Positions 8,432 to 24,767 of a stretch of 63,061 nucleotides of DNA are shown piece by piece (the first letter of the stretch is position 1; each line of letters begins with the position of its first letter). The position numbers and the translations under genes are program-made. Source of the DNA: Eubacteriales bacterium. Its GTDB lineage: Bacteria; Bacillota; Clostridia; Oscillospirales; CAG-272. The notes below the pieces were generated by a model that was not told where the DNA came from, made no database searches, and saw nothing but the letters and a program-made list of their open reading frames with translations. The DNA is taken from assembly GCA_045535095.1 (NCBI GenBank), contig JAZSKY010000002.1, positions 1 through 63,061 of the forward strand, given 5' to 3'.

Positions 8432-9718
8432 ATGAAAACAAAGCTTTCTCGCCGTTTTTGGGCGGCACTTACAGTGTTTTCTCTTTTCGGACAGGTTGCG
8501 TGGGTAGTTGAAAATATGTATTTCAACGTCTTTATTTACAATATGTTCAACGCGAGCGCGTCGGATATTTCGATGATGGTTGCGGCGTCCGCTATCTCGG
8601 CGGCACTGACCACAGTATTTATCGGATCGCTCTCCGATAAGATAGGAAAGCGAAAGCTTTTCATCTGCGGAGGATATATCCTCTGGGGCGTTTCGATCTT
8701 CTCGTTCGTTTTGCTTCGCAGTGACGTTCTCGGAAAGCTCTTTCCGATGACTCTTTCGGCGGCAAGCCTCGGAATTACTCTGACGATAATCCTCGACTGC
8801 ATAATGACATTCTTCGGATCAAGCGCAAACGACGCTGCCTTCAACGCGTGGCTGACAGACTCCACCGACTCCTCGAACAGAGGCGCGGCAGAGGGAATAA
8901 ACGCTATGATGCCGCTTGTCGCAATACTCGTCGTTTTCGGCGGATTTATGTTCTTCGATCTCACCGCTGCATCGAGCTGGACTCTCATCTTCTCGATAAT
9001 CGGTGCGGTAGTCATACTCGTCGGCGTGCTTGGAATCTTCCTTATCGACGATCCCGATATTCGCCCCACCGAAACGGGATATTTTCATAATATCACCTAC
9101 GGATTCAGACCGCGCACAGTAAAGAAATATCCTCTTTTGTACGTGCTTCTTATCGCGTTTGCGGTCTTTAATATCTCGATACAGATATTTATGCCGTATC
9201 TTATCATCTACTACGAAAAGACACTCCAAATGGCAGATTACGTTCTCATAATGGCGCCTGCTATTATCGTAGCATCGGTCTTTACCGCCTTTTGGGGAAG
9301 AGTTTACGATAAGCGCGGACTCAGCTTTTCGCTCTCGGTTTCACTCGCATCTCTTGCATCGGGATACCTTATCCTCTATTTCACCCGCACAACGCTTCCC
9401 GTGTTTGTCGGATCGCTCCTTATGATGAGCGGATACCTCTCGGCAATGGCGGTATTCGGCGCGGTGATACGCGACTATACCCCCGAGGGGAAATCGGGAA
9501 TGTTCCAAGGGCTGCGTATCTTCTCGCAGGTGCTTGTTCCCGGTGTTGTCGGACCTGCTATCGGAGCGGCGGTGCTTAAAAACGCCGAGCTTATCACAAA
9601 CAGCGACGGCACGACCTCCTTTTTACCTAACGAAAACATCTTCATAACCGCACTGCTCGCCCTTGTAGTTCTTTTAGTACCTATGGCGTTCTTCCTTAAA
9701 AAAAGGAAGGAAAAATAA
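8432..9718 (+). CDS. MFS transporter
   Basis: About 12 TM segments; motif A GSLSDKIGKRK and its second-half repeat GRVYDKRG. Confidence 0.9.
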   Translation: MKTKLSRRFWAALTVFSLFGQVAWVVENMYFNVFIYNMFNASASDISMMVAASAISAALTTVFIGSLSDKIGKRKLFICGGYILWGVSIFSFVLLRSDVLGKLFPMTLSAASLGITLTIILDCIMTFFGSSANDAAFNAWLTDSTDSSNRGAAEGINAMMPLVAILVVFGGFMFFDLTAASSWTLIFSIIGAVVILVGVLGIFLIDDPDIRPTETGYFHNITYGFRPRTVKKYPLLYVLLIAFAVFNISIQIFMPYLIIYYEKTLQMADYVLIMAPAIIVASVFTAFWGRVYDKRGLSFSLSVSLASLASGYLILYFTRTTLPVFVGSLLMMSGYLSAMAVFGAVIRDYTPEGKSGMFQGLRIFSQVLVPGVVGPAIGAAVLKNAELITNSDGTTSFLPNENIFITALLALVVLLVPMAFFLKKRKEK

Positions 9719-9726
9719 ATAAAAAT

Positions 9727-9754
9727 AAAGCGTGTGGCATTTGCCACACGCTTT
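9727..9754. terminator. Bidirectional intrinsic terminator between convergent genes
   Basis: AAAGCGTGTGGCA-TT-TGCCACACGCTTT. Confidence 0.85.
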
Positions 9755-9759
9755 TGTTT

Positions 9760-11100
9760 TTACGATAATTTAATTGTTACGTCTCTGCGCTCCTCGGTGG
9801 GGTTTGTGACCGAGATCACGTCACCTGCCGAGAAAACGTACTCGAAATTGCCGTTTTCGTCCGAGGTTATCTCGCTGCCGTTTATCTTAACGCTTATCTG
9901 CTTGTCCTTTATTTTGAGAGTAGTTGCATTAAGAAGAAGCGAAACGAAATGATACTCCTCGCCTGAGGGGATAGAGAAGGTAACCGACGAGTCAAGAAGG
10001 ATTATCGGATTATTCGTATCGCCGTCGAGACAGTTGAGAAGGAACTCGACCTCGCTGACGCTCGCCTTACTTGTGGAAGCGATCGCAATAGAGATCTCGT
10101 CGCCTGCGTTCACGTAAACGTACTGCGAAACCTTACCCTCGGTGTAGGGGGAAACCTCCATTGTCGTCTTGTTGTAGAGCATAATGGTATTGTGCGAGGT
10201 ATAGGATACTACCTGAAGAAATCCGTTTCTTTCTGCTACGTATCCGTAATAAACGGTCTTGTCCTTTTCAACGCTTACTGTATAGGTGGTGTCGAGAAGA
10301 GCGTCAAAGGGAAGCTCGGGCGAGCCGGGAATGGACTCGAACTCAAGGTTTAAAGACTTTTCAGCGTCCGTCTTGTTTATAATTTTAAGTACGGTAGGTG
10401 AGAAATGGCTTTCGGGAATGAGTCTGAACTCGATCTTTCCGTTTTCGTCGGGAGTGTAGGTGTTTTCGTCGTAGATTATCTCGATGTCGGTAGCGTTTAT
10501 TTTGAGGATTCTCTCACCGCCGCCTATCGAATAGAAGAAATCGGAGCTTGCCGCAAGAATAAGAGGCGAGCCGTCAAGGGCAACGGGAAAGGGACGCTCC
10601 GCGCTTCCGTCGGGAGTGATGTTCTCAACGAGTATTTCGCTCTCTGTCTCGCTTTCGCTGACAGTTAAGGGGTAAGAGGGCTGATACTCGGAATATCCGT
10701 CGGGGAGAGATTCAAAGCTGAGCGTGTAAGCGCCGACTGCAAGAGAGGCGTTGAAGCATCCGTTTGTATCGGTCTTACCGCGAAGAGCTTCGTCATATCC
10801 GAAATAGAGCACGAACTCTGCATCGGCAACGGGAGTGCCATCCTGATCGGTAACCTTTATAACGTGGCTTATCTTAAGCTCGGCAGGAGCAGACTCCTTG
10901 CCGCAGACGTCACAGATGCCGTCGGAATTTTCGTCACTGTGCTCGGTACACTCGGTCTTTTTCTCGATCGGCGTGGAGCATACGTCGCATGCGCCGTCCG
11001 CGTTTTCGTCAACGTGCGAGGTGCAAGTGTCGGTAGTGCAAGCCGAAAAGAGAAGTGCTACGAGAGCAAATATAGATATCAGAGATATTATTTTCTTCAT
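9760..11100 (-). CDS. Lipoprotein with two N-terminal Cys/His repeats and beta-sandwich (prealbumin/CnaB-like) modules
   Basis: Lipobox LFSAC; CTSHVDENADGACDVC and CTEHSDENSDGICDVC; VTDQDGTPV...GKTDTNG...GAYTLSFESLPDGY. Confidence 0.75.
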   Translation of the reverse strand: MKKIISLISIFALVALLFSACTTDTCTSHVDENADGACDVCSTPIEKKTECTEHSDENSDGICDVCGKESAPAELKISHVIKVTDQDGTPVADAEFVLYFGYDEALRGKTDTNGCFNASLAVGAYTLSFESLPDGYSEYQPSYPLTVSESETESEILVENITPDGSAERPFPVALDGSPLILAASSDFFYSIGGGERILKINATDIEIIYDENTYTPDENGKIEFRLIPESHFSPTVLKIINKTDAEKSLNLEFESIPGSPELPFDALLDTTYTVSVEKDKTVYYGYVAERNGFLQVVSYTSHNTIMLYNKTTMEVSPYTEGKVSQYVYVNAGDEISIAIASTSKASVSEVEFLLNCLDGDTNNPIILLDSSVTFSIPSGEEYHFVSLLLNATTLKIKDKQISVKINGSEITSDENGNFEYVFSAGDVISVTNPTEERRDVTIKLS

Positions 11101-11130
11101 TTTTCCTCCAAGAAGATCAAAATATAGATT

Positions 11131-11159
11131 ATTATAACATTTTTTCGATCACTTTGCAA
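11131..11159 (-). promoter_or_regulatory. Sigma-A promoter for the 9760-11100 lipoprotein
   Basis: TTGCAA-17-TATAAT. Confidence 0.75.
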
Positions 11160-11181
11160 GGGGTTTTGAAAAAAGAAAGAA

Positions 11182-11209
11182 AAAACAGCAGACCGAAGTC
11201 TGCTGTTTT
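11182..11209 (-). terminator. Intrinsic terminator
   Basis: AAAACAGCAGAC-CGAA-GTCTGCTGTTTT. Confidence 0.85.
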
Positions 11210-11227
11210 GGTTAATCTGAATATGAA

Positions 11228-12094
11228 TTACTCAGCGATTCTCTTCTTGGAAACGATAGCGCATCCGAAGATAGAAGCAAGAGCAACTGCTGCAACTGCA
11301 ACGTAGAGTGCAGTGCTGTCGCCGTTCTCGGGCGATCCGCTATTGCCGCCTGCGGGAGCATCAACCTTCTTGGTGATGATAAGGTTGATAGTATCAGAGG
11401 TCTCGGGACCGGGCATGGGAATATTGGAAGAAATGAAGCCCTCAAAGGTTTCGCCTGCAGCAAGAGTAACCTCATAGGGCGCTTCAAACCATTCGCTACC
11501 GTACTGATCTTCAACACCGATAGAAGCATTCTCTTCGCCGTCAGCAGCAGCAATAATATATGTACCTGCTTCGGTTGCGGTGAATGTAACAGCTACTTCT
11601 TTAGCGGTGAAGTTTTCGATAGCAATGTCGATGTCGTTTGCGCCGAGAGTAAGCTCGATAGCTTCGGGCTCTACAGGACCGGTGCCGCTTCCGTCAGCGG
11701 GAATGCACTCCTGAGGCATGCTCATACCGAAACGAACCATAAGGGTTTCGCCTTCAATGGTGAAGAATATGTAATTTGCTGCTTCGGGATCTCCGGTATT
11801 TCCGTCCTCGACGGTGATAGCTACAGCGTCACCATCAAAGGTGTAGGTGTAGGTTCCGCTAAATCCAGAGTAGTTATCATCAACGATGGTGAGGATTCCG
11901 CCGCCAAGGCTAGTTCTCTGGAAGGTCAATGTGTAAGCTACGACGTGCATTGCGGGAGGTGCCATAGAGTTGAGAACCTCATATTCGTCGCCATCCATGA
12001 GATCAGCGAAAGTGGTGCGAGGCGCCGCTGAAACGGTGAGTGCCATAGTAAGTACCATAGCAAGAACTAAAATGGTTGCGATCAGTTTTTTCAT
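11228..12094 (-). CDS. Secreted surface protein with a C-terminal sortase-type sorting signal
   Basis: Signal peptide (…MALTVSA); C-terminus SPENGD + hydrophobic helix + KKR tail. Confidence 0.7.
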   Translation of the reverse strand: MKKLIATILVLAMVLTMALTVSAAPRTTFADLMDGDEYEVLNSMAPPAMHVVAYTLTFQRTSLGGGILTIVDDNYSGFSGTYTYTFDGDAVAITVEDGNTGDPEAANYIFFTIEGETLMVRFGMSMPQECIPADGSGTGPVEPEAIELTLGANDIDIAIENFTAKEVAVTFTATEAGTYIIAAADGEENASIGVEDQYGSEWFEAPYEVTLAAGETFEGFISSNIPMPGPETSDTINLIITKKVDAPAGGNSGSPENGDSTALYVAVAAVALASIFGCAIVSKKRIAE

Positions 12095-12160
12095 TTTAAA
12101 ATTCCTTTCTGAAAACTGAAAATTAAACTAATTCAGTATATTTTTAATTAGTTTGTGTAT

Positions 12161-12189
12161 ATTTTATCACCCTTTTCTTGATATGTCAA
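12161..12189 (-). promoter_or_regulatory. Sigma-A promoter for the 11228-12094 gene
   Basis: TTGACA-17-TAAAAT. Confidence 0.8.
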
Positions 12190-12252
12190 CAGTTTTTTGA
12201 CAAAATATTAACTTATTGGTAAAAAAACTAACGTTTGGGGAGAAAAAATACA

Positions 12253-12280
12253 AAAAAACGAGCCGAAAGGCTCGTTTTTT
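12253..12280 (-). terminator. Intrinsic terminator ending the MoxR-vWA-lipoprotein operon
   Basis: AAAAAACGAGCC-GAAA-GGCTCGTTTTTT. Confidence 0.85.
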
Positions 12281-12289
12281 ATATATGGA

Positions 12290-14443
12290 TTATGCTTTGG
12301 TGATTACGAGGTCGATAGTATCTGGCTCGAAGTTATCGGTCATAACGAGGAACGAGAAGCTTTCGCCTGATTCAAGAGTAATCTCGTAAGGAAGTTCAAA
12401 GGTAGAAAATCCGTATGCATCTTCCGTACCGCAGGAGGCATTAGTCTCGCCTGCTGCTGCACTGATGGTGTAAGTTCCGGCTTCGATTGCCGTGAAGGTT
12501 ACGTTAACGCCCATAAACGAGTTGACAACATTAATCGAGTTTTCTCCAAGGTTGAGTTCTGTTCCGGCAGGAATATCCTCTCCGCCGCCAATATCTCCGC
12601 CTTCTTCATCAACGGTTGCGTCGGTGATAGTGAAGGTGACCTCTGCATCTGCGCTTGCGTTAAGAGTTGCAACAGCGGCAATAGCGCCCGACATATAGTA
12701 GTCGATCTGCTCACCCGATACGATCGCGCTCCAGCCGTTGTTTACGTCAACGTTTGCGTTGTTCCAAGTGATAATGAACGACTTATACATTGCGTTCGCG
12801 GTGAAGCCTTCAACGTAAATGTTGTACGAAACGCCTGCGGTCATAGTTACGGTATTAGTACCAACGGTAAGCTCGATCTTGTTTTCGAACTCCTCGATAA
12901 CTACGTCAGCGGTGTCAGAAGCGCCCTTAAGAAGGAAGGGAATGCTTCCGCCCACTGCTGTGACCTGAACCTCTCTTGCCCAGGTTGCGCCGTCGTCAAC
13001 GCTTACCTCGAAGCCTTCGGGTGCCTTGATGATGAAGAGTGCGCCGTCCCATGCTTCGTTGAATACGTTGAGGGTACCCTCTGCGCCTGCCTTGGCGGTG
13101 TAGGTGGTTGTATCGCTCTCAACGAGGTATCCTGCGTGGGTAATGGTGATAGTTGCGTCAACGGTGGTTTCGGTGGTCTCGAAGTTGCTTGCCTTTACGT
13201 AGAAGCAGATCTTCTCGCCTGCTTCAAGGTTTGCGGTGATGAAGTCGCCCCAGATGCCTGCCATGTAGCTGTATTCTTCGCTCCACTGATAGAAATAAAT
13301 GTCCTCGCTGTCAGCGACTATCGAGTAAGCGCCTGCCTTGGGTGCGGTGAACTCTGCGGTGAAGTATTCGCCGTAGGTGAAGGTGTGGCTGTTCTCGCCC
13401 TCGTTTACTGCAGTAGAGCTGAAGGAAACGATCTCAAAGTCAAACTCGAAGGTAGAAGAGCTGAGATCCTGGCACTGAACGGTGAAGCTTACGTCTGCTC
13501 CGTCAGCGGTAGCGCCAACTGTAACAGAGGTATCAAGCATATCGTTCCAAGCGAGGTTTTCAGCCTCAGAGGAGATCTGATAGAGTCCTGCGGTGGGCGC
13601 CTTGAAGCTTACGTTCATAACAACGCCTGTGGGGAGAGAGTAAGTACCCTTAGTGCCTACAAGAACAACGTCCTCGTAGGAAACGATGGTATATTCGAAG
13701 GGAATTACCTTATCGTCGGGAATTTCGTATGGCCAGATAGAAGCCTTGACGGTGAATTCTCCTGCCTCGGCAACCTCAAACATGTAAACCTGAGTAAAGG
13801 ACCAGAGGTTTTCCTCGCTTTCCTCGTCGAGCATTCCGCCGTAGTTTACGCCAGACTCATCGGTAGAGAAGATCGCGTACTTGCCTGCCGCAGGAGCGTT
13901 GAAGGTAACTGTCTGATAGTAGGTTACCCAAGCCTGCTCAACCGCGATAGATCCGTCGCCCGTGGTGACCACTTCGCCGAACACGGTCTTGAATGCCGAG
14001 ATGCTGACAGAGGTGTTTGCATTGATGGATGCTACCTTAACGGTATAAACGAGCTTAGAGTCCTTAGCCTCGGGCTCGCCAACGATCTCTGCGCCGTTTA
14101 CCGAAAGAGCGTAGTCGCTGTCAACGGTAGCCTTGAAGGTGACGTCAGTGCCGGGTGCGCCCGAAAGAGTGCCATCAACGGTAACGTTCTCGGGAGCATT
14201 TACCGTAACGAAATACGCGGTAACGTATCCGCAGACGTCACAAATGCCGTCCTCTGTGCCTGTGTGAGCGGCAAGATCCGATTTTTCGGAAGTATGCTCG
14301 CAGTTTGCCGCATGCCAATGGTTTTCAGCGTCTGACGACCACTCGGCAGCGAAGGTGTGTGTGTGTTCTACCTTGTCAGTGCAGCTCGCAAGGGCTGTGA
14401 GCGCAAATACAAAGCAAAGAACGAGAGAGATTATTCTCTTCAT
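12290..14443 (-). CDS. Lipoprotein with a His/Cys N-terminal motif and multiple beta-sandwich repeats (start moved to 14443)
   Basis: SD GGAGG before ATG 14443; lipobox ALASC; HTHTF..EW..D..NHWH...CEH; four FxA[PI]xxGxYxI modules. Confidence 0.75.
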   Translation of the reverse strand: MKRIISLVLCFVFALTALASCTDKVEHTHTFAAEWSSDAENHWHAANCEHTSEKSDLAAHTGTEDGICDVCGYVTAYFVTVNAPENVTVDGTLSGAPGTDVTFKATVDSDYALSVNGAEIVGEPEAKDSKLVYTVKVASINANTSVSISAFKTVFGEVVTTGDGSIAVEQAWVTYYQTVTFNAPAAGKYAIFSTDESGVNYGGMLDEESEENLWSFTQVYMFEVAEAGEFTVKASIWPYEIPDDKVIPFEYTIVSYEDVVLVGTKGTYSLPTGVVMNVSFKAPTAGLYQISSEAENLAWNDMLDTSVTVGATADGADVSFTVQCQDLSSSTFEFDFEIVSFSSTAVNEGENSHTFTYGEYFTAEFTAPKAGAYSIVADSEDIYFYQWSEEYSYMAGIWGDFITANLEAGEKICFYVKASNFETTETTVDATITITHAGYLVESDTTTYTAKAGAEGTLNVFNEAWDGALFIIKAPEGFEVSVDDGATWAREVQVTAVGGSIPFLLKGASDTADVVIEEFENKIELTVGTNTVTMTAGVSYNIYVEGFTANAMYKSFIITWNNANVDVNNGWSAIVSGEQIDYYMSGAIAAVATLNASADAEVTFTITDATVDEEGGDIGGGEDIPAGTELNLGENSINVVNSFMGVNVTFTAIEAGTYTISAAAGETNASCGTEDAYGFSTFELPYEITLESGESFSFLVMTDNFEPDTIDLVITKA

Positions 14444-14482
14444 AATTTTTGCCTCCTTTAAAAGCATAAATTTATTTTAATT

Positions 14483-16051
14483 TTATTTTTCAACGTAATA
14501 TCCGCAGGCGAACAGCCACTGATCGTCCTCGTCTGCATATACCGAAATGCTCGGATTTGTCTCAACGAAGCCGTTTCCGTCGAAGAAGAGAAGCTGCGAG
14601 ATGCTGAATTTCTGCAAAAATGCCTTCAGTTCTTCTGTTACGGCGTAAAGTCCGTCGCTATTGGTGTAGTTCGCGTATCCGCCGACTCCGACCGCCTCTA
14701 CGGGACATCTTCTGCAGTCTGCGTGACAGCGAGTACAAGCCTCGGTACAAGCACCGATATATCCCGTGTTACACTGATTTCTGAGTCTGCAAGGGCAGCT
14801 TGTCGTACAGAAATAAGGTCCGCTATCTCCGGGGGGATCTACGAGAAGCGCCTCAAACCCCTCGATGAAGAGCTTATAGTTTTCGGTTCCGCCAGAAACG
14901 GTCAGAACCTTGTTTCCTGCAAGCTCGATGGTTGTAAAGGGTGAGTCGATAAATCTGCACGCCGTGCTTATATATGCATACAGAATCGGACCGTATCCGT
15001 GTGTCTCGGGATATTTTGCCTCGTCGTAGAGGTGATAATATCCGTCGCCGCCGTTTTCCTTTGCCCAAAGCTTGTAGAGCGATCCGTCAAAGATGTTCGC
15101 GCTCGCGCCTCCCACCGTTTGAGTGGTCTCCGCGCCGACAAATTCATATTTTGAAGGATCGTAATCAGGTTGCTGAACGAGAGTCTCGCTCGGAATTATG
15201 AGTCCCGATTCTATGTGCGGCATTGAAAATTCGCCGTCAAGCATTATGACGAAATAAACGTGTACGGGATATTCGCCGCTCTTCGAGTCTGCCTTGATAC
15301 CGAAGGTGAAGGTGACCTGACCGCCGTTTCCTATCATTTCATCGGCGATATTTACGTCAAGCTTGAAGTTCTTCGTGAAGGAGGACTGCGCTCCTCCGTC
15401 GTCGGCAGTAAAGTCAAGCTGCTTGAAATATGCGTTTGCGCCGTAGTAATTCGCTTTCGGATTTACAGTGTTTTCAACTGTATCGGTCCACGAATGTATC
15501 GAATAGGTTCCGCTCTTTCTCGGGGAAAATTCGAAATAGACCTCATCGCCTGCGTCCTCGATCTCAGCGCGGTAAACGCCCGTCGATGCGATATTTATAC
15601 AGCTGTTGTAGAGGTGATTTCCTTTACCCTTCGTCTCAACGAGGCGGTAAAGCTTTATGACAACGTTTTTACTGTCGCTCGTTGCGGTATATGCGCTCGG
15701 ATCGTATCCGTAGCCGTCGGGGATATCCGAAAGGGTTACCTTGTAGTCTCCGTCGAGTCCGCTGATCCTTGCAACTCCGTCCTCACCGATCTTTGCCTTG
15801 TGGAAGGAGAATCCGTCGTTCCACTGAACGTATATCTCCTTGTCGGGGGTGGGAATATAGACCTGCGAATTGTATTCGAGAGATACTGTGAAATCGCCTG
15901 ACGTGTCAGTGCCGCTTGGCCGGTCGGTCTGATCCTCGCCGCCTTGAGAAGCACCGCTCGACGATCCGATAGGAGAATACTCTCCGCACGAGGCAAGTAT
16001 CATTGAAAGGGAAAGAAGGAGGATAAGAAGAGAGAAAATCTTATTTTTCAT
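14483..16051 (-). CDS. Lipoprotein with a 9-Cys cluster, uncharacterised
   Basis: Lipobox ILASC; prealbumin-like module (GDYKVTLSDIPDGY); CTTSCPCRLRNQCNTGYIGACTEACTRCHADCRRC; ATGA overlap with the upstream vWA gene. Confidence 0.75.
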   Translation of the reverse strand: MKNKIFSLLILLLSLSMILASCGEYSPIGSSSGASQGGEDQTDRPSGTDTSGDFTVSLEYNSQVYIPTPDKEIYVQWNDGFSFHKAKIGEDGVARISGLDGDYKVTLSDIPDGYGYDPSAYTATSDSKNVVIKLYRLVETKGKGNHLYNSCINIASTGVYRAEIEDAGDEVYFEFSPRKSGTYSIHSWTDTVENTVNPKANYYGANAYFKQLDFTADDGGAQSSFTKNFKLDVNIADEMIGNGGQVTFTFGIKADSKSGEYPVHVYFVIMLDGEFSMPHIESGLIIPSETLVQQPDYDPSKYEFVGAETTQTVGGASANIFDGSLYKLWAKENGGDGYYHLYDEAKYPETHGYGPILYAYISTACRFIDSPFTTIELAGNKVLTVSGGTENYKLFIEGFEALLVDPPGDSGPYFCTTSCPCRLRNQCNTGYIGACTEACTRCHADCRRCPVEAVGVGGYANYTNSDGLYAVTEELKAFLQKFSISQLLFFDGNGFVETNPSISVYADEDDQWLFACGYYVEK

Positions 16052-18687
16052 ATTTTCATTCCTCCTTTTCTTGACTTAAAGAAGCTCTTTACGTCGCTTA
16101 TTTTGAGCTTTCTTATAATTATATCAACGATAAAGGCAATTATCGCGAGAATCATAAGGGGTGCCGTCATACGGAGCGTGTAGGTTGCGATATCGTCGTC
16201 CTCGTTTTCAAGTGAGGGAACAACGCCTTCGCTTACGCTTCCTCTGTTTCTTATAGCGGCGTGGAGAGTTGACGGATCAAAGACCGCGAAGCTGTCATAT
16301 TCGGGTGAATAGGAGACGTTGAAGGTCTCGTTTGCCGCAAACGATCTTTCGCCGTACGAATAAACTATGTCTATCTGATATTTTCCGCTCGCCGGAGTTT
16401 CAAACTTGTAGAAATATCTCGACGAGTCGAATGTGAGCTGCTTTGTAACGGACGTGCCGTCGGGAAGTGTGACGGTAGCCGTTGCGGTAGCGCTCGGATT
16501 AAGATCAGCAGGGATTATCTCAACGCTTGAGCTTGTACCGTCATACTCAACGTTAAGGGTGTAGGGATATCCGATTCTTTCGTCGGGCGTGCAGCCCTTA
16601 CATACGTTTGAGAAGAAGGCTTTTCCTTCATCGGACGCCCAAAGTTCGCTCCAGTCTCCCGAGAGAGTGCTTGTGAAGCTTGCAACCCTTCCTTCACCGT
16701 AGCTCCAGTATGCGTAGAGAGGAGCTTTGACCGTTTTTCCGCTGCTCTTTACGTATTCTACCTGCAATGGTGTGTAGGCACTCGCCTTGCTCTTTGCGTA
16801 AACGTATCCGAAAACGTCGGGAAGAGAAGTGATGCCCTCGAGAAATTCGTCGCCCGGAAGGGCAATCTCTACCGAGGTCTGCTTTTCTATTACCGACTCG
16901 GTAAGGTCGTCCGCAATATCGGTAAACATTACCTTGTCAAGCTCTTCCTCGGTGGTTATTTCGTAGTATTTTCCGCCACCTGCGCTTGCGATACCCTTGA
17001 GTGTTGCCATTCCTTCCTCACGCGGCGGCGCGTGAATTACCGAGGTTGTAATGCCGCTTTCATAGAGACGGGCAACAACGTCAGAGGGCGTGTCGCTGTC
17101 GAGAGTATAGGACATACCGTCGCTTATCAGCATTATCTGCTTTTCGTCAAAGGCAAGCTCTGTCATAAGGTCGCCCGCTTTGTCGAGTGCTGTTCCTATA
17201 ACAGTACCCTGATAGGGCTCTATCGAGTTTATCTTCTTTGCAAGAAGGTCCTTGTTACTGTCAGATGCGCGTGTGGGTGACTGAAGGACGTTGATCTCGC
17301 CCCAGAAGTTTACTACCATAACGTAGTCGTTCTCGTCGAGGAGATCAAGCAGACGGACTGCCGCCATTTTCGCTATTATAAGACGGGAGAAGTTCTGCAT
17401 ACTGCGCGACGAGTCTATTACGATAGCGTAAAGCTTGGGGTCTCTGTCTCCGTTACCGAACTTGACGGGGAGCATATCCTCAAGCTGCATAAGAATATCC
17501 TCGGTCTTGTTCTGTATCTTGAGATCTCCCATAGTTACGAGACTTTTTCCAAAGAGAGATACCGATTTGTCAAGTGCGTCTATGAACGCGGTGTAGTTGT
17601 TTATTTCGCGAACGTCCACGTTTGAAATGACGATCTCGTCGTATTCGCACAGCTCTTCAATGCTGCAAGGAACGTCTCTGTTTTTCTTCGTTATTATATA
17701 GGACGTGATAGATGCCCTCTCACCGAAAAGCTCCTTCGCTCTCGTTTCGTCGTCCTTTGAAGAGCTTACGAGAAGAACCTTAAGCTCCTCGCTGACGCTC
17801 TGAGTGAAGAAATACGAATTGTTTATACCAAGGGTATCATCGTCAGACGAGATCTTGACGCTGTAATCAAACGTGCCTGCGACTCCTGTCGGAATGTCAA
17901 AGCTGAATACGTTGTATCCCTTTGTTAGCGAGAGTGCGCGAGAGTCTATCTCACTCTCTCCTGAGAAAAGGGTGATTATCGCATTCGAATCCTGATTGGA
18001 CTGAATAAGTATCTCTGCGCTTTCCTCATGGTTTAAATAGGTCGATTTTGTGAAATCAACGCCGCTTATCTGTATTTCCTTTGTGTCGGGCGAGATGTTA
18101 TCGTCAACGTATATCGCGTCTATCGAAATATCGTCGGCGTAAAGTCGCTCAACAGTGCTTATAAGTCGCGAGGTCGATTCGGGATCGCTGTCGCGTCCGT
18201 CGGTTATAAGAACTATCTTTTTGATACAGTCGTCTCCGAACAGCGCGGCGGTGTATTCAAGCGCAGATGCAATATCTGTGGCGCTGTCGTCCACGTTTTG
18301 CTCGCTTACTGACTTTATTTTTTCACCCATGGAGGTGAGGAGTGTCTGATCCTTGCCGAAGCAGACGATTCCCATTTTCGAGTTTCTCGGAAGCGAGTCT
18401 TTGACCTCGCCTACGTAATCGTCGATAAGATCGAGATTTTTGTTTGCCGAGAATGATACGTCTGTAACGACGTAAACCTCAGTTTTGGTTATTACCGAGG
18501 TGATGACCGCACCCGAGAGAGCTACCGTTATAAAAGCGGCAATAAGAAGGTGCAAAGTAAGGGACGCCGTTGTGCTTTTAGACTTGTTTTCCTTTCTTAT
18601 TGCGATAAAGAAGGGAATCAGTATAAGCGCGATAACGGGGACCGCTATAAGAAGCAGATAGGGATTATCGAAACTGATATTTATCAT
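16048..18687 (-). CDS. Membrane protein with two vWA (MIDAS) domains (start moved to 18687)
   Basis: N-terminal double TM; TDVSFS...LITDG and IDSSRS...LISDG; C-terminal TM. Confidence 0.85.
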   Translation of the reverse strand: MINISFDNPYLLLIAVPVIALILIPFFIAIRKENKSKSTTASLTLHLLIAAFITVALSGAVITSVITKTEVYVVTDVSFSANKNLDLIDDYVGEVKDSLPRNSKMGIVCFGKDQTLLTSMGEKIKSVSEQNVDDSATDIASALEYTAALFGDDCIKKIVLITDGRDSDPESTSRLISTVERLYADDISIDAIYVDDNISPDTKEIQISGVDFTKSTYLNHEESAEILIQSNQDSNAIITLFSGESEIDSRALSLTKGYNVFSFDIPTGVAGTFDYSVKISSDDDTLGINNSYFFTQSVSEELKVLLVSSSKDDETRAKELFGERASITSYIITKKNRDVPCSIEELCEYDEIVISNVDVREINNYTAFIDALDKSVSLFGKSLVTMGDLKIQNKTEDILMQLEDMLPVKFGNGDRDPKLYAIVIDSSRSMQNFSRLIIAKMAAVRLLDLLDENDYVMVVNFWGEINVLQSPTRASDSNKDLLAKKINSIEPYQGTVIGTALDKAGDLMTELAFDEKQIMLISDGMSYTLDSDTPSDVVARLYESGITTSVIHAPPREEGMATLKGIASAGGGKYYEITTEEELDKVMFTDIADDLTESVIEKQTSVEIALPGDEFLEGITSLPDVFGYVYAKSKASAYTPLQVEYVKSSGKTVKAPLYAYWSYGEGRVASFTSTLSGDWSELWASDEGKAFFSNVCKGCTPDERIGYPYTLNVEYDGTSSSVEIIPADLNPSATATATVTLPDGTSVTKQLTFDSSRYFYKFETPASGKYQIDIVYSYGERSFAANETFNVSYSPEYDSFAVFDPSTLHAAIRNRGSVSEGVVPSLENEDDDIATYTLRMTAPLMILAIIAFIVDIIIRKLKISDVKSFFKSRKGGMKI

Positions 18688-20518
18688 AACAGTACACCAT
18701 CCAATCTGCAAGGAATATGATTGCGAGAATAATGAAGATTACGGGGAGCGGATCGTATTTTCCGTCAAATCCCTTGTCGCTCGCCTCTCCGACGAGAGAG
18801 ATCTCGCCCTCACTAACGCTCGGATCGCGCTCGGCTTCGCTCATCTCCGAGAAGATCGAGAAGCTTTTTGCCGATCCCGCAACGGTCATTGTGACCTTAT
18901 ATACTCCCACCTCGCTGAGCGGGAGAGATGCGCTCGGTGCGGACGTACTCAGATAAGAAACGTTGCCAAGCGGACTTTCAACTCTTATGCTTTCGCAGTT
19001 GGAGACTACGTTTATCTCTGCGCTCTCTGCGTTTTTATAAGAGGTCTTTTCCACTACGTCGGGGAATGAATAGTTAACGAGATTACGCATAAGAATCGCG
19101 TAATCGGAGAGCAGGGGAAGGTTGGAATCGTGAATATCGAAGGCAAATACGACCTCACGTACTCCGTCTGTCGTGCTTCCTGCAAAGACTATCGGATTAC
19201 CCTTGTATGTGAAAATATTTGTGAAATTGCGGTAAAATCCGCATTTTACGTATCTGGTAATGTGTATTCCTTCTCCCGGAAGATCCTTGGCAAGAGCCTT
19301 TGAGAGAGAGGATGTTGACGTGCTGAGCGAAAGAGTCTCTGAGCCCTCGAAGTCAACTGCACCCTGTACGCTGTATCCTGCGCCGTTGACGCTGCCCTGA
19401 ATATTCATAAGCCACACGCTTCCGTCCTTGGGAAGCTCGCTGATGAGACTTTCCTCTACCGAATCGAAGATATAAAGTCCGTATCCGCTTTGTCCGTTAT
19501 ACTGCGAGGGCTTTATAACGTCTATCTTAGCGTGAAGGATATTTGAGAGCATCGCCTTTATAAGGAAGGGACGCTCGCTGATAATAAGCGTGTTGTACGA
19601 GCCTTCGCTTTTAAGATCGTAAACGATATACTCGTTATCGTACGCAAAATCGTCGGCACTTGTTATCCTGATCTTCGCCTCTGTGAAGATCTCAACGTTT
19701 GCGCTGATAGTAAAGGGCGTTTTTTCGTCTGCAACGACGCTGACAGTTTCCTTTGCGATCGCAGTATCGGACGAGTTAATGAAAAGCTCCACGTCGAGAA
19801 GCGCGTCCTTATCGTACGAAATAAGGCTTCCTTCAAACTCAAGAAGAGAATTTTCGTGTGTGTAGATAACGTCGGAGAGAGCGTGATTAGATTCTCCGCG
19901 CGATAAGTTTATAACGTTTATATTATTTGATGCGCTATGCTCCTTGTCACTTACAAGATAGGTGATAAGAGAGGGGTTTTCATTGAAATATCCCTGCGCT
20001 ATTCCGAGCGCCTCGGTAAGGTCTGCGCTGTTATATGCGCTTTCAAGACCGCCAAGAAGGGTAAGAGCCTCCTCCTTATCCTCACTCTTTTCAAAGATGA
20101 CTCTCGTCTCGTTTCCGACTAAAACGAGCGAATAGAGGCTTCCGTCCGACGATTCCTCGATGATATCCGAGATCTCGCGCTTTCCTCTCTCAAATCTCGT
20201 TTCGCCGTCCTTTGACATATTCATACTGCCCGAAGCATCAAGGATAAAGCAGTATTCGTTTGCCGAGTTAGGCACGGCAATTATCGGATGCGCGATGGCG
20301 AGCGAAATGAGAATAACGGCAAGTATCTGCAAAATGAGACTGATGATTCCGCTGAGCTTGCTTAAAGGATTTCTCCTTTTAAGGAATTTCTCGCTGAGAG
20401 TCCACAGATAAGTAGAGGACACCGTTTGCTCGGTATATTTACTTTTTATTATGTAAATGATTACCAGTATAGGCAGTCCTATAAGTCCGAGTAATCCAAG
20501 TGGGTAAATAAAACTCAC
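18665..20518 (-). CDS. BatA-type N-terminal double-TM + vWA domain protein
   Basis: MSFIYPLGLLGLIGLPILVIIYIIK..., FILDASGSM (DxSxS), C-terminal TM. Confidence 0.85.
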   Translation of the reverse strand: MSFIYPLGLLGLIGLPILVIIYIIKSKYTEQTVSSTYLWTLSEKFLKRRNPLSKLSGIISLILQILAVILISLAIAHPIIAVPNSANEYCFILDASGSMNMSKDGETRFERGKREISDIIEESSDGSLYSLVLVGNETRVIFEKSEDKEEALTLLGGLESAYNSADLTEALGIAQGYFNENPSLITYLVSDKEHSASNNINVINLSRGESNHALSDVIYTHENSLLEFEGSLISYDKDALLDVELFINSSDTAIAKETVSVVADEKTPFTISANVEIFTEAKIRITSADDFAYDNEYIVYDLKSEGSYNTLIISERPFLIKAMLSNILHAKIDVIKPSQYNGQSGYGLYIFDSVEESLISELPKDGSVWLMNIQGSVNGAGYSVQGAVDFEGSETLSLSTSTSSLSKALAKDLPGEGIHITRYVKCGFYRNFTNIFTYKGNPIVFAGSTTDGVREVVFAFDIHDSNLPLLSDYAILMRNLVNYSFPDVVEKTSYKNAESAEINVVSNCESIRVESPLGNVSYLSTSAPSASLPLSEVGVYKVTMTVAGSAKSFSIFSEMSEAERDPSVSEGEISLVGEASDKGFDGKYDPLPVIFIILAIIFLADWMVYCYDKYQFR

Positions 20519-21399
20519 TTCAAGACCTCCGTGTTTACGAGTTTTTCAAAGAATACGTCTCCTACGCTGTCGTCTGCCGAGACGAGAAGGTATGCGCCTC
20601 CGCGTGACGCGCAAAGGTCCCCGACCTTTCCGGTGACGTAGATAAGCGCTTCCTTGTACGCCTTCGCAATGTCTCTGTCGATGTTTTTGCGATAGGTCGA
20701 AATGGCGTTTTCAGAGTCGAAGAAATGAACCTTTCCGCGAACGAGGGGATTTAATTCTTCCTTAGTCAGCACCTGAATACATACGATGTCGCGCTTTTTC
20801 TCGGAGAATCGGTCGATAGCGCCCTCATAATCGTTGTCGGTGAGAAAGTCGGATATAAGCACCGAAAGTCCGTCACCGTAGCCAACGTTTTCGGGGAGAA
20901 TGGCATCGCTTATGCGGCAGTCACCCTCAAATACCACGTCGTTAAGCTGACCGATCGACGAGAGATAAGCCTCTTTTCCGACGATGCTTTTTATTACCTC
21001 GGTGACCTTTCCGCCGTTTAACGTGTATATTGACACCTTGTCCATTTCGCATACAGAAAGATAGGCGATCAGCGCGGCAATTCGGAGTGCCTGCTCGGCC
21101 TTTTTTGCCTCTCCGTATTCCATAGAGCGGCTGGCGTCGATATATATTCTCGTGTGCATCTGACGCTCGTCAAGATAAAGCTTCGTGTAAAGCTTTTCAA
21201 AGCGCGCGTACGCATTCCAGTCTATTTTGGTTGTATCGTCGCCCTCGGCATAGTCCCGAGAGTCGGCAAATTCACAGGAAGAGCCGTAGGTTTTACTCTT
21301 TCTGTTTCCGCCAAACATTCCTGCGACGTTGTTTTTGAGAAGCATTTGCAGACCTTCTATCTGCTGAAGAAGCTCCTCGTTAATAACAGATCTGCCCAT
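20515..21399 (-). CDS. DUF58 domain protein (vWA-like MoxR partner)
   Basis: GSSCEFADSRDYAEGDDTTKIDWNAYAR, IYIDASRSM, LISDFL. Confidence 0.9.
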   Translation of the reverse strand: MGRSVINEELLQQIEGLQMLLKNNVAGMFGGNRKSKTYGSSCEFADSRDYAEGDDTTKIDWNAYARFEKLYTKLYLDERQMHTRIYIDASRSMEYGEAKKAEQALRIAALIAYLSVCEMDKVSIYTLNGGKVTEVIKSIVGKEAYLSSIGQLNDVVFEGDCRISDAILPENVGYGDGLSVLISDFLTDNDYEGAIDRFSEKKRDIVCIQVLTKEELNPLVRGKVHFFDSENAISTYRKNIDRDIAKAYKEALIYVTGKVGDLCASRGGAYLLVSADDSVGDVFFEKLVNTEVLK

Positions 21400-21402
21400 A
21401 GA

Positions 21403-22383
21403 TTATTTCTTTATCTCCTTAACGAGCATATCGATAACCTCGTCAACTGTGAGCTTTTCGCTTATTGCGGTGTAGCTGAGCTTAACTCTGTGGCGAAGAA
21501 CGGGCTTTGCGAGTGCTTCAATATCCTCGTAGGATACGTTGAAGTTTCCATTCATAAGAGCGCGTACTCTTGCTGCGGAAACGAGAGCCTGAGCGGCACG
21601 GGGAGAAGCGCCGTATCTGAGGTACTTCTTTGCAACACTCGGAGACTCTTCGAGCTCGGGGTGAGTACCCGAAACGAGGCGCGAGGTGTAATCGAGTATC
21701 TCGTCAAGGACGGGAACCTCCTTTGCAAGCTCTCTCATATCGAGTATGGTCTCTCCGTCAAGGACTGCCTCTGCGGTCTCAGCCATGGTGATTCTGGTCA
21801 TTTTTACGATATCAACGATTTCCTTTGCAGAGGGGAACTTCATTATAAGCTTGAACATAAAGCGGTCCATCTGCGCTTCGGGAAGGGGGTATGTACCGTC
21901 CTGCTCGACAGGGTTCTCGGTAGCAAGCACGAAGAAGGGCTCGGAAAGCTCGTAGGGGACGTTTGCAACCGTCACCTTATGCTCCTGCATCGCCTCAAGC
22001 ATTGCCGACTGCGTTTTCGGGGTTGCTCTGTTGATCTCGTCTGCAAGAACGAGGTTTGCAAATATAGGTCCGCGGCGGAAGGTGTTCGTCATTCTGCCGT
22101 CGGGATCCTTTTCGATAACAACGTTACCGGTAATATCGGAGGGCATAAGGTCGGGGGTGAACTGTATTCTCGAGAAGGGAAGATTGAGCACCTTTCCGAG
22201 CGAGCGCACGAGACGTGTTTTTCCGACGCCGGGTACACCCTCGAGAAGCACGTTACCGCCCGAGATTATAGCGAGGATAACGTTGTCAATTATCTCTTCC
22301 TGACCGACGACGTCGCGGCGGATCTCCTGCTTGACCTTAGCTATTGATTTGCTGAAATTCTGTATTCTTTCCATGTTTTCCAT
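21403..22383 (-). CDS. moxR: MoxR family AAA+ ATPase (MoxR-proper type)
   Basis: LLEGVPGVGKT, RIQFTPDLMPSDITG, LADEINRATPKTQSA, NPVEQDGTYPLPEAQMDRF, GASPRA. Confidence 0.95.
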   Translation of the reverse strand: MENMERIQNFSKSIAKVKQEIRRDVVGQEEIIDNVILAIISGGNVLLEGVPGVGKTRLVRSLGKVLNLPFSRIQFTPDLMPSDITGNVVIEKDPDGRMTNTFRRGPIFANLVLADEINRATPKTQSAMLEAMQEHKVTVANVPYELSEPFFVLATENPVEQDGTYPLPEAQMDRFMFKLIMKFPSAKEIVDIVKMTRITMAETAEAVLDGETILDMRELAKEVPVLDEILDYTSRLVSGTHPELEESPSVAKKYLRYGASPRAAQALVSAARVRALMNGNFNVSYEDIEALAKPVLRHRVKLSYTAISEKLTVDEVIDMLVKEIKK

Positions 22384-22412
22384 TGTTATATTCCTTTCAA
22401 ACCTTCGTTTTG

Positions 22413-23834
22413 TTAGTTGTTTTCGCCTGTTCCGTTAAACAGTGCGGCAAAATAGTCGCTGATAAGCTGTTCAAGCTCGTGTTCGACGTTTCCGTCTGCA
22501 AACTGCTCGGAGATCTTTGCGTAGTATCTGTTAATGACCTCGCCGTACGAAACGTACTTTCCGCTTTCGGGATCGTATATCATATCGTCGCTTCCGAAGA
22601 TCATATCTCCGCTTCCGAATCCGCCCGAATTAAGCGGATCGTCGCTGTCCTCATGCTCGTAGTCGCCCTCTTCCTCTTTAAGAGCGGGAGCGGACGGTCT
22701 CGACTCTGCGGGAAGCTCGCTTTCGCTTATGCCGAATATCTGCATAAGTCTGCGGACTGCTCCGTCACAAACCGAGCGGTTAGTGTACTGAACGAGCAGC
22801 GCCGACGAGATGCTCTCGCCATGGTGAGCAAAGGACGCGTCTATCTCGCCGTCGGTAAAGCTTCCTGACGCAAGAGAGGAAATCGCGGATGCAAAATCGT
22901 TCAGCGCGATATAGAGCTTGTCTGTGTCGTTAACTCCCGAGCCTTCAAGCGCGCTTACTATCCCGGACGATATTTCGGTGAGCTTTGCCTTGCCGTTATC
23001 ACTAAAGAGTGCGCGTATCTCGGTAAGCTCTCCGCCGAGCGTTATAGCATCAAGCGACTCTATCGGAACGGAAAGTGCCTTCGTTTGCTCGTCAGATGCA
23101 AGGGACAGAGAAATATACGGTGCAGAGTTGTGGCCGCTGAGTATCTTCTTTACGTCGCGTATTGCGCCGATTACCGAGGTCTTCATTTCGCTGACCTTTT
23201 TTGCCGCGCGAAGCTCGGTGAGGAGTCCCTCAAGCTCGCCGACCGTTGCACCTCTCGGCTCACTCTCCATCTCGGAGCGCCGAACGTCCTCAATAAGATC
23301 CTTCAGCGCCTGCTCCTGCCACGAGGAAAGGGTGAAGGCGGGATCGTCATCAATCGGACCTGTCTGTCCCTCTGAAACTGCGTTTGGAATCAGAAGAGTT
23401 ACGACAAGCAGTACCGCCGCTAAAATCGGCATTATGAGGTGAACAAGGAAGCTTTCGCCACGAAGCTTTTTGACGTCGGCTTCGCCGAGTATTCTTTCGG
23501 TGTCCGATCTCTGCATTTCGATCATATCGCCGTCTGCGTTTTTAAACTCGATCATGGTAGATACCTTTTCGCCGAGCGAAAGGGAGGCGTCCAGTCTTTT
23601 TGCAACTCGCTTTTCGCTTGGATAGAAGGCTATCAGCGAGATAGCAATAAATATCAGCGCACACAGAGCGCCCGATATAAGAGATACCGAATTTATCGGT
23701 ATTTTTCCTGCGCACTTATATATAAGTGAGATAAGAGACGATACGAATATTCCCGACGATAGCGCAAACACTGCTGATTTGAGGAGTGTTACGAGAGTCA
23801 GACGTCTCCTTAGCCTTTGAAAGTTTTTATACAT
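22413..23834 (-). CDS. Uncharacterised 3-TM membrane protein with a long helical domain, first gene of the MoxR operon
   Basis: 473 aa; two N-terminal TMs, VAKRLDASLSLGEKVSTMIEF, third TM, acidic helical tail ending in YFAALFNG. Confidence 0.75.
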   Translation of the reverse strand: MYKNFQRLRRRLTLVTLLKSAVFALSSGIFVSSLISLIYKCAGKIPINSVSLISGALCALIFIAISLIAFYPSEKRVAKRLDASLSLGEKVSTMIEFKNADGDMIEMQRSDTERILGEADVKKLRGESFLVHLIMPILAAVLLVVTLLIPNAVSEGQTGPIDDDPAFTLSSWQEQALKDLIEDVRRSEMESEPRGATVGELEGLLTELRAAKKVSEMKTSVIGAIRDVKKILSGHNSAPYISLSLASDEQTKALSVPIESLDAITLGGELTEIRALFSDNGKAKLTEISSGIVSALEGSGVNDTDKLYIALNDFASAISSLASGSFTDGEIDASFAHHGESISSALLVQYTNRSVCDGAVRRLMQIFGISESELPAESRPSAPALKEEEGDYEHEDSDDPLNSGGFGSGDMIFGSDDMIYDPESGKYVSYGEVINRYYAKISEQFADGNVEHELEQLISDYFAALFNGTGENN

Positions 23835-23885: not shown

Positions 23886-23914
23886 ATTATATATAATAAA
23901 ATATATAAAGTCAA
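23886..23914 (-). promoter_or_regulatory. Sigma-A promoter for the MoxR operon
   Basis: TTGACT-17-TATAAT. Confidence 0.8.
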
Positions 23915-23972: not shown

Positions 23973-24767
23973 TCAGAGCTGTTTTTTGATTCTCTCAAGC
24001 GCGCTCTTTTCAAGACGGGATACCTGCGCCTGAGATATTCCTATCTCGTCTGCTATCTCCATTTGAGTCCGTCCGCTGAAAAAACGCTTTGAAATTATCA
24101 TTTTTTCGCGTTCTCCGAGCTTTGCAAGAGCATCGCGCAGAGCAATATTTTCAAGCCACGCATCGTCCGTACTGCTTTCGTCCTTGATCTGATCCATAAT
24201 ATATATAGCGTCTGACGACGAGCCGTCCGAATATACGGGATCGTAAAGAGAAACGGGATCAACTATCGCTTCAAGAGCGCATACGACCTCGCCGCGAGTG
24301 TGAGTGTCGCCCTCATTTTTAATAAGAGCGTATATCTCGTCTATCGTCGGCTCTCTCGACAGCTTAGACGAAAGTCTGTCACGCGCAGAAAGTGCCTTGT
24401 AGGCGAGATCGCGCACTGATCTGCTGACTCTGACCATATTATTATCCCGTAGATACCGACGAATTTCGCCGATTATCATAGGGACTGCATAAGTGCTGAA
24501 TCGCAGTCCAAGCTCTGTATTGAAGTTATCTACCGCCTTTATAAGACCGATGCAACCGATCTGAAAAAGATCGTCGGGATTTTCGCCGCGTCCCGAAAAT
24601 CTCTGAACTATGCTCAAAACGAGACGGAGATTTCCGTCTATAAGCTCGCGCCGCGCCACCTCGTCTCCCTCGCGTACCTTTTTCAGAAGAGCGTCCTTTT
24701 CGTCCTCGGTCAGAACCTTCAGATGAGAGGTGTTTATGCCGCAAATATCGACCTTTCCGATATACAT
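23973..24767 (-). CDS. sigG: Forespore RNA polymerase sigma factor SigG
   Basis: KVDICGINTSHLKVL N-terminus (SigG-type), GNLRLVLSIVQRF, DDLFQIGCIGLIKAVDNF, GISQAQVSRLEK. Confidence 0.92.
   Translation of the reverse strand: MYIGKVDICGINTSHLKVLTEDEKDALLKKVREGDEVARRELIDGNLRLVLSIVQRFSGRGENPDDLFQIGCIGLIKAVDNFNTELGLRFSTYAVPMIIGEIRRYLRDNNMVRVSRSVRDLAYKALSARDRLSSKLSREPTIDEIYALIKNEGDTHTRGEVVCALEAIVDPVSLYDPVYSDGSSSDAIYIMDQIKDESSTDDAWLENIALRDALAKLGEREKMIISKRFFSGRTQMEIADEIGISQAQVSRLEKSALERIKKQL

Follow-up and report, generated by a model that had tools for sequence, protein, structure and literature searches.

Bat operons, as described in B. fragilis, Leptospira (bat) and Borrelia (bb0170-0176), encode a MoxR ATPase of the AAA_3 family, then a DUF58 protein, and then membrane proteins in which a BatA double transmembrane (TM) segment is combined with a VWA domain carrying a metal-ion-dependent adhesion site (MIDAS). 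In the time since these operons were described, no client has been reported for the widespread MoxR-DUF58-BatA/VWA cassettes. The window analysed here, the whole 63,061-nucleotide (nt) stretch of contig JAZSKY010000002.1 from a Eubacteriales bacterium (GCA_045535095.1), carries such a cassette among nine co-oriented minus-strand genes running from 23834 down to 9760 (Table 1). Seven of these genes, encoding the 3-TM protein tm473, a MoxR-type AAA+ ATPase, a DUF58 protein, the VWA membrane proteins BatA617 and VWA887, and the lipoproteins lipo522 and lipo725, form one unit with a single promoter and a single terminator, in which neighbouring genes overlap or are separated by short gaps. As in Borrelia BB0173 (PMC5700661), the VWA domains are placed outside the cytoplasmic membrane, here by prediction. 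The locus differs from Bat operons in several respects: tm473 leads the operon, whereas MoxR comes first there; the VWA proteins, with 617 and 887 amino acids (aa), exceed their Bat counterparts two- to threefold in length and have a C-terminal TM anchor and, in one case, two VWA domains; and two dedicated lipoproteins are fixed members in a Gram-positive host. No match to TPR proteins (BatC/BatE) or BatD (PF13584) was found for any of the nine genes in Pfam or NCBIfam.

The PFNA cluster of Bifidobacterium (pkb2-fn3-MoxR-DUF58-tgm) likewise belongs to a Gram-positive gut bacterium and joins a MoxR-proper ATPase and a DUF58 protein to a beta-sandwich (FN3) protein that is secreted or surface-exposed and has been proposed as a MoxR client (PMC8430577). 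However, the place of the BatA/VWA proteins is taken there by a Ser/Thr kinase together with a membrane protein of transglutaminase-like type, and the FN3 surface protein is neither a lipoprotein nor homologous to the surface proteins found here. In RavA-ViaA, CbbQ-CbbO, NorQ-NorD, CoxD-CoxE and BchI-BchD, an AAA+ ring works with a MIDAS VWA partner that grips the client, and the MoxR and DUF58 proteins of this locus could be a pair of that kind. In those systems, however, partner and client both reside in the cytoplasm and the enzyme that serves as client is known, whereas here lipoproteins are the candidate clients and most of the MIDAS sites have a predicted extracellular location.

The favoured reading, which is considered reasonably likely, is that the locus represents a lineage-specific, Bat-like MoxR envelope cassette, termed type A, of uncultured gut Oscillospirales-type Clostridia. 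That the lipoproteins are coupled to this cassette, both genetically and functionally, is proposed with good confidence. What is new is a strictly co-inherited lipoprotein pair, of which the conserved one has a domain lacking a PDB match and the hypervariable one sits on a putative zinc-module stalk. In the literature library searched, no paper describing the type A cassette in Clostridia was found, and the Bat operons and the PFNA cluster are the nearest systems described.

Distribution and co-inheritance of the cassette

In a sample of 301 genomes of the family, homologues of VWA887 were separated into type A (35-100% identity to VWA887) and a paralogous type B (25-31%). Type A was present in 14 genomes belonging to eight genera, in each case (14/14) with a lipo522 homologue at adjacent coordinates, while type B occurred in more than 20 genomes and a lipo522 homologue stood beside none of its copies. 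Among 41 relatives, the five-gene core occurred in eight genomes and the lipoproteins only in four congeners and one other genus. In a sample of 401 genomes of the order, lipo522 was confined to the window's own genome. When one genome per species was considered, 163 species had a relative of lipo522, all of them uncultured Clostridia, "Eubacteriales" or Oscillospiraceae metagenome-assembled genomes from ruminant, deer and other gut samples. Synteny was counted in detail in the best 80 lipo522 loci from these species. VWA887 was directly upstream of lipo522 in 77/77 loci with upstream DNA, at identities down to 33%, and the order of all five core genes was unchanged in the 68 loci with sufficient sequence. 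The flanking genes, on the other hand, vary between cassette loci.

A tree of VWA887 homologues separated type A and type B by one branch with a support of 100, so that a single change explains the association with lipo522, and no loss was seen on the tree. The cassette is kept intact in the species having it, and is present or absent as a whole. Four congeneric genomes lack it, and comparison with them gave no defined boundaries of an insertion or deletion, synteny downstream of sigG not being kept. Taken together, strict adjacency maintained across deep divergence, an origin that occurred once and was not followed by loss, coupled translation, and presence or absence as a unit show a shared function. 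The synteny survey proposed in the initial annotation thus yielded lipo522 and a lipoprotein with Cys/His modules as fixed members of type A. Homologous MoxR operons without the lipoproteins, which had been named as evidence against the idea, do exist as type B, but no such case was found among the type A loci. The suggestion that partners of the cassette are encoded in cis is therefore well supported as a functional link.

The lipoproteins could instead be co-transcribed passengers, for example nutrient or host-glycan binders, which share only the regulation of a core with its own envelope or stress role and make no contact with the VWA proteins. Type B cassettes function without lipo522-type lipoproteins, the lipoproteins carry standard Sec/lipobox signals, and a distant lipo522 paralogue (25% identity, E 7e-11) lies on contig C5 of the genome with no MoxR gene adjacent. 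This explanation is nevertheless unlikely in view of the unbroken adjacency amid varying flanks, the single origin without loss, the stop/start overlap of VWA887 and lipo522, and the restriction of the lipo522 C-terminal domain to just 411 clusters, which share one architecture, in a set of 1.84 billion representatives.

Three genomes (G640, G659 and G665) hold both types, with type A and one or two type B cassettes, and these coexisting paralogues presumably serve different partners. BspA-type leucine-rich repeat (LRR) lipoproteins were found near some type B cassettes, with the association confirmed at two loci (LRR_5, 2e-141 and 6e-44), which suggests cassettes with exchangeable lipoprotein partners; unrelated genes were found near others. 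For the type A cassette, strict co-inheritance offers two defined candidate partners in at least 77 species, and the locus suggests that abundant, uncultured Clostridia of the ruminant and animal gut have a surface complex of an uncharacterised type.

The two cassette lipoproteins

Lipoproteins were recognised by a signal peptide ending in [LVI][ASTVI][GAS]C. No Pfam or NCBIfam family matched lipo522, a PDB sequence search with its profile was empty, and the 546 matches of its family are all without a name. The full-length AlphaFold2 model (mean predicted local distance difference test score 82.7) has three domains. Residues 54-137 were modelled as a prealbumin-like sandwich, in line with the prealbumin-like module originally assigned to two of the lipoproteins, the other being lipo446 with its SpaA domain; both G.Y......P.GY segments were confirmed in the translations. 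Residues 150-271 were modelled as a second sandwich, carrying FSPRKSGTYSI, and its fold matched the collagen-binding domains of ColG/ColH (1nqd_B, TM-score 0.70, root-mean-square deviation 3.5; 3jqw_A, 0.63; both target-normalised) and the C-terminal domain of C. perfringens enterotoxin, which is related to them. The likeness is one of fold and not of function; identity to the fold matches was 7-15%, this sandwich had no Pfam PPC match and no PDB sequence match, and lipo522 differs from these proteins in having no attached collagenase or toxin domain.

Residues 285-522 form a confidently modelled alpha/beta domain of 238 aa, for which fold searches gave no PDB match. In the 411 clusters mentioned above this domain is always C-terminal, in proteins of ~440-720 aa, and a hidden Markov model of it retrieved lipo522 alone from the own proteome. 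Its compactness, confident model and lack of a PDB match make it suited to binding and structural work, which could be done with recombinant ectodomains and no culturing. A cluster of nine Cys at 415-446 is an insert that is missing from several cassette-linked homologues, and some homologues of lipo522 hold just 2-4 Cys.

Outside the window, three adjacent lipoproteins of 962, 443 and 350 aa are encoded at contig C5:24570-29834, with no MoxR gene beside them. The first two are lipo522-like, having a prealbumin-like domain, an F.PT.SG.Y.I sandwich and a DGYYH motif, and their C-termini resemble WLFACGYY of lipo522 (WLFACCY in the 443-aa protein). The 962-aa protein contains an inserted AhpC/TSA-thioredoxin domain (4e-13).

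The second lipoprotein, lipo725, probably starts at the ATG at 14443 (MKRIISLV...). It consists of one 51-aa Cys/His module (residues ~33-80) followed by repeated, mutually related beta-sandwich modules. In other species the gene after lipo522 encodes a protein of 514-2053 aa, with a lipobox in 54/57 loci (by a looser pattern) and at least one Cys/His module (1-7 copies) in 49/57. In most species the N-terminal module part alone aligns with lipo725, and the remainder is hypervariable. The module has the consensus HxHTFx3WSxDx3HWHx3TCxHx5Dx3HxDx3DGxCDVC and corresponds to no Pfam family. In four loci (L086, L097, L113 and L118) the gene after the lipo522 homologue encodes an extremely Cys-rich protein (117 Cys in 2053 aa in L086) that differs in composition from the usual Cys/His-module lipoprotein. 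Within the own genome, DGxCDxC was found in lipo725 and lipo446 only, and two further lipoproteins outside the operon, at contig C56:35896-39838, carry a single degenerate Cys/His module each (CQSHKDADNNEKCDVC, HTKHEGNGTCTVC).

The 51-aa module showed a weak similarity (phmmer E 1.7e-4) to the Thomasclavelia ramosa IgAse (PDB 9QA6; PMC12237041) over two 34-aa stretches, one inside zinc-binding domain (ZBD) 1 and the other just before ZBD2. The motif H.H.[FY]..EW..D...HWH..C is common to both, and in each case short Cys/His modules in tandem separate the functional domains of a gut Firmicute surface protein from its cell anchor. The similarity covers only part of the module, and the modules are C-terminal, beside a sortase anchor, in the IgAse but N-terminal, beside a lipid anchor, here. 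With 3 Cys and ~6 His, the module is compatible with tetrahedral 2His+2Cys zinc sites, which are predictions here and likewise in the IgAse (PMC12237041). The authors of the IgAse structure regarded the ZBDs as a possible new metal-binding fold and a spacer from the cell wall (PMC12237041).

A metal-insertion chaperone similar to NorQ/NorD or CoxD/CoxE, loading zinc or another metal into the lipoprotein Cys/His modules and Cys cluster outside the cell, would account for the conserved abundance of Cys and His in the partners (up to 34 Cys and 58 His in module-bearing lipoproteins, and the nine-Cys cluster of lipo522). Several MoxR-class systems mature metal centres. However, the lipo522 cluster is an insert that several cassette-linked homologues do without, the lipoprotein after lipo522 has no module in 8/57 loci, and the known metal-inserting MoxR/VWA pairs work in the cytoplasm. 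The similar IgAse modules, moreover, are described as structural spacers with no mention of a dedicated chaperone (PMC12237041), and metal insertion is thus quite unlikely. The Cys/His richness is best read by analogy with the IgAse ZBDs as structural zinc spacer modules rather than as evidence that MoxR inserts a metal.

Core proteins, predicted topology and proposed mechanism

The MoxR protein scored 200.6 bits against AAA_3 (cut-off 27 bits); the bpMoxR profile also matched (6.6e-13), beneath the far stronger AAA_3 match. Its identity across all type A and type B cassettes was 60-78%. The DUF58 gene is directly downstream of MoxR and followed by the two VWA proteins in all loci, and its product is probably a cytoplasmic VWA-like partner of MoxR. 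For tm473, no significant Pfam match and no NCBIfam family were obtained; its conserved parts are a cytoplasmic loop (KRLA..LD....EKVQT..AF....LQR.D.E) and the C-terminus (GG.G.G...Y.P..G.Y..Y....YF..L). A relationship to DUF4175 was considered, and with a weak match in 3/27 homologues (best E 0.002) stays a hint.

BatA617 comprises an N-terminal BatA double-TM hairpin, the VWA domain, an ectodomain of ~400 aa without a family match and a C-terminal TM segment. VWA887, whose true start is probably the ATG at 18687 (MINISFDNPYLL), comprises a TM hairpin, VWA1 (DVSFS), a linker domain, VWA2 (DSSRS), a sandwich region, a C-terminal TM segment and a basic tail. The region of VWA887 that contains FETPASGKYQI is a probable Ig-like sandwich, with a weak Big_3_5 match (E 0.0024) below the Pfam cut-off. 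Apart from this match, Pfam and NCBIfam gave nothing significant for the unassigned parts of BatA617, VWA887, lipo725 and lipo446. A suspected resemblance of the unassigned ectodomain regions to GATase1-like domains was not confirmed and was dropped. The four DxSxS MIDAS motifs noted in the initial annotation (DASRS and DASGS in the DUF58 protein and BatA617, and the two of VWA887) are present in the translations. Among the homologues compared, more than 70 of type A and 13 of type B, nearly every one retains the D, S and S of each of the four sites; the DxSRS of DUF58 is kept in 69/70 type A homologues.

Hydropathy and the positive-inside rule gave the same topology for BatA617 and VWA887. 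In both, a short N-terminus lies outside, the TM hairpin has a cytoplasmic loop rich in K/R, and the ectodomain (514 and 766 aa, respectively) is followed by a C-terminal TM segment and a basic tail. For tm473 they placed the N-terminus inside and gave three TM helices, with 60 aa in the cytoplasmic loop and 324 aa in the acidic ectodomain, and no TM segment was detected in MoxR or DUF58 by hydropathy. MoxR and DUF58 are accordingly predicted to be cytoplasmic and the VWA domains of BatA617 and VWA887 to be outside the cell, as the initial annotation had anticipated and consistent with the experimentally periplasmic VWA domain of BB0173 (PMC5700661). Alignments of more than 70 homologues showed that conservation in both VWA proteins is highest in the cytoplasm-facing loop and tails. 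The loop STYLWTLSEKFLKRRNPLS and C-terminal tail ADWMVYCYEKYQLR of BatA617 are almost invariant, and the tail motif DIIIRK.KW.DIKSLF is conserved in VWA887. Within the genus, identity was lower for tm473 (52-55%), lipo725 (58-65%) and lipo446 (52-55%) than for MoxR (78%) and DUF58 (76-77%), indicating that outward-facing parts evolve faster.

A mechanism can be proposed for the type A cassette, in which each of the two VWA proteins would be held in the membrane by its N-terminal hairpin and C-terminal helix and would expose ectodomains of 500-770 aa with three intact MIDAS sites, next to the acidic helical ectodomain of tm473. The ectodomains may build a membrane-proximal, metal-ion-dependent scaffold that docks the conserved adaptor lipoprotein lipo522 via the MIDAS sites and, with or through lipo522, also the variable binder lipoprotein, whose beta-sandwich modules would be kept off the membrane by the stalk of putative zinc modules. 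From inside, the MoxR/DUF58 pair would assemble or remodel the complex via the near-invariant cytoplasmic loop and tails. The output would be a surface binding or adhesion complex with an outer part that diversifies fast between species, and this variable component may serve in binding to the host, to glycans or to particles. The specific steps of MIDAS docking and ATP-driven remodelling are put forward tentatively. A doubtful extension is a generic, integrin-like surface machine of gut Clostridia that is under ATP control and works inside-out, in which a MoxR/DUF58 motor acting on the loop and tails would switch the external MIDAS sites to capture or release dedicated lipoproteins. Each paralogous cassette would then serve its own lipoprotein family (lipo522 with zinc-stalk binders, or BspA-LRR and others), with the C-terminal domain of lipo522 as docking adaptor.

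Several points weigh against these proposals. Conserved adjacency in a vertically inherited operon proves shared function and not a direct client relationship. Lipoproteins reach the surface with Sec and Lgt alone, and the need for a MoxR chaperone is not obvious. To our knowledge, there is no Bat-type system with a known way for a cytoplasmic AAA+ ring to act on ectodomains. The topology derives from hydropathy and charge alone, the coupling comes from genomes of uncultured organisms, from which protein contact is inferred, and the sequencing runs containing the locus are DNA metagenomes only, with no RNA runs.

A Bat-like role in redox balance or aerotolerance, in which the cassette would protect the envelope in a strictly anaerobic host and the lipoproteins, being rich in Cys, would buffer thiols or metals outside the cytoplasm, would fit the match of the core to MoxR-DUF58-BatA operons linked to aerotolerance (PMC3557215, PMC5700661), and the AhpC/TSA-thioredoxin insert in the paralogous C5 lipoprotein. 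No equivalents of BatC, BatD or BatE were detected, however, and the Cys content of the lipoproteins is variable and sometimes very low, as in the lipo522 homologues with few Cys noted above. The Bat proteins of Leptospira reportedly have no clear role in oxidative stress either, and such a role is very unlikely here. Control of a hypervariable surface protein by a MoxR-vWA thresholding pair, in the sense of a conflict or defence system (Kaur et al., 2020), agrees with the hypervariable outer lipoprotein and with the regulation of variable effectors by MoxR-vWA pairs elsewhere (PMC7159879), but is highly improbable, given that the third components VMAP, iSTAND, FtsH and beta-propeller were not detected in Pfam or NCBIfam, that neither an effector or toxin domain nor a diversity-generating element was seen, and that the MoxR is of AAA_3 type with DUF58 and VWA domains predicted to be extracellular.

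Locus layout and neighbouring genes

Both signals bounding the operon and the identities of all seven genes between them, as first annotated, were confirmed (Table 1). The promoter ends ~45 nt before the tm473 ATG, and an Rfam search ahead of the operon found no riboswitch, leader RNA or other element. Of the two ATGA overlaps originally reported, that between the VWA887 stop and the lipo522 start (16048-16051) was verified, with a good ribosome-binding site (AGGAGG) 9 nt upstream; that between DUF58 and BatA617 at 20515-20518 reads GTGA, in which a GTG start overlaps the TGA stop.

Table 1. Coordinates of the cassette genes, the operon signals and the two downstream surface genes in the window.
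Feature	Position	Strand	Description
Sigma-70-like promoter	23886..23914	-	TTGACT-17-TATAAT; 11/12 positions match; precedes operon
tm473	22413..23834	-	Three hydrophobic segments (3-TM); leads cassette in 68 loci
MoxR-type AAA+ ATPase	21403..22383	-	AAA_3 (PF07726) 9.9e-60; AAA_lid_2 1e-17
DUF58 protein	20515..21399	-	DUF58 2.8e-26; MIDAS-like DASRS; no TM segment
BatA617	18665..20518	-	BatA (PF07584) 2.3e-11; VWA_2 5.8e-11; TIGR02226 above cut-off; MIDAS DASGS
VWA887	16048..18711	-	Two VWA_2 stretches, 5.6e-22
lipo522	14483..16051	-	LASC lipobox; start overlaps VWA887 stop (ATGA)
lipo725	12290..14467	-	LASC lipobox; last operon gene; no Pfam/NCBIfam family
Intrinsic terminator	12253..12280	-	12-bp stem, then T run; ends seven-gene operon
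tm288	11228..12094	-	Secreted; copy of last lipo725 module; C-terminal TM, KKR tail; genus only
lipo446	9760..11100	-	Non-canonical lipobox FSAC; SpaA (prealbumin) Pfam 1e-9

Directly upstream of the operon promoter lies the gene of the sporulation sigma factor SigG (23973-24767, minus strand; NF006071, 4.7e-119). A link of the cassette to sporulation through this neighbour was rejected, adjacency to sigG being kept only within the genus. Two long open reading frames (ORFs) on the plus strand, at 13136-14335 (399 aa) opposite lipo725 and at 21154-22347 (397 aa) opposite MoxR, are without homology support and were treated as shadow ORFs. In several related loci, a greedy longest-ORF filter selects such antisense shadow ORFs over MoxR.

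The two further surface genes in the same orientation, which the initial annotation had also listed, are tm288 and lipo446. Each has its own promoter and terminator (12189-12161 and 11209-11182 for tm288; 11159-11131 and 9754-9727 for lipo446), and they are therefore separate transcription units. The tm288 protein aligned with the last module of lipo725 at 49% identity over 106 aa (E 1e-27) and had no Pfam or NCBIfam family. It was considered as a sortase substrate, its TM segment and KKR tail giving it an architecture like that of a sorting signal, and rejected as such, since the motif ahead of the TM segment is not LPXTG or SPXTG but SPENGD in tm288 itself and xNTGD in three of its orthologues. 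Elsewhere in the genome, at contig C48:48645-52329, a sortase-like gene (TLFTC) is flanked by two genes whose products carry the sorting signals LPSTGG and PPDTGD; these genes may form a pilus or adhesin cluster, which bears on the question of sortase anchoring of tm288. The lipo446 protein is built of two short CxxH..DGxCDxC modules, the SpaA/prealbumin domain and further sandwiches. Relatives of lipo446 occur within 10 kb downstream in ~27/80 loci, and also in L028-L030. Both genes are genus-level or occasional add-ons to the cassette.

The strand motif FxxxxxGxYxI, initially described as shared by VWA887 and the surface proteins, is indeed enriched, with seven of the 17 instances in the whole proteome (~524,000 residues) falling in four adjacent genes, where ~0.05 would be expected. 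GxYx[ILV] is, however, a generic signature of beta-sandwich strands, and the type B VWA homologues retain merely G.Y.[ILV]. Homology between VWA887 and the lipoproteins through this motif was rejected, since the VWA887 segment matched the lipoprotein modules at E 0.03 or worse, compared with E 1e-4 to 1e-27 for the lipoprotein modules among themselves.

The terminator at 9727-9754 is bidirectional, with a perfect 12-bp stem, and is common to lipo446 and a convergent gene for a 428-aa multi-TM protein (8432-9718, plus strand).

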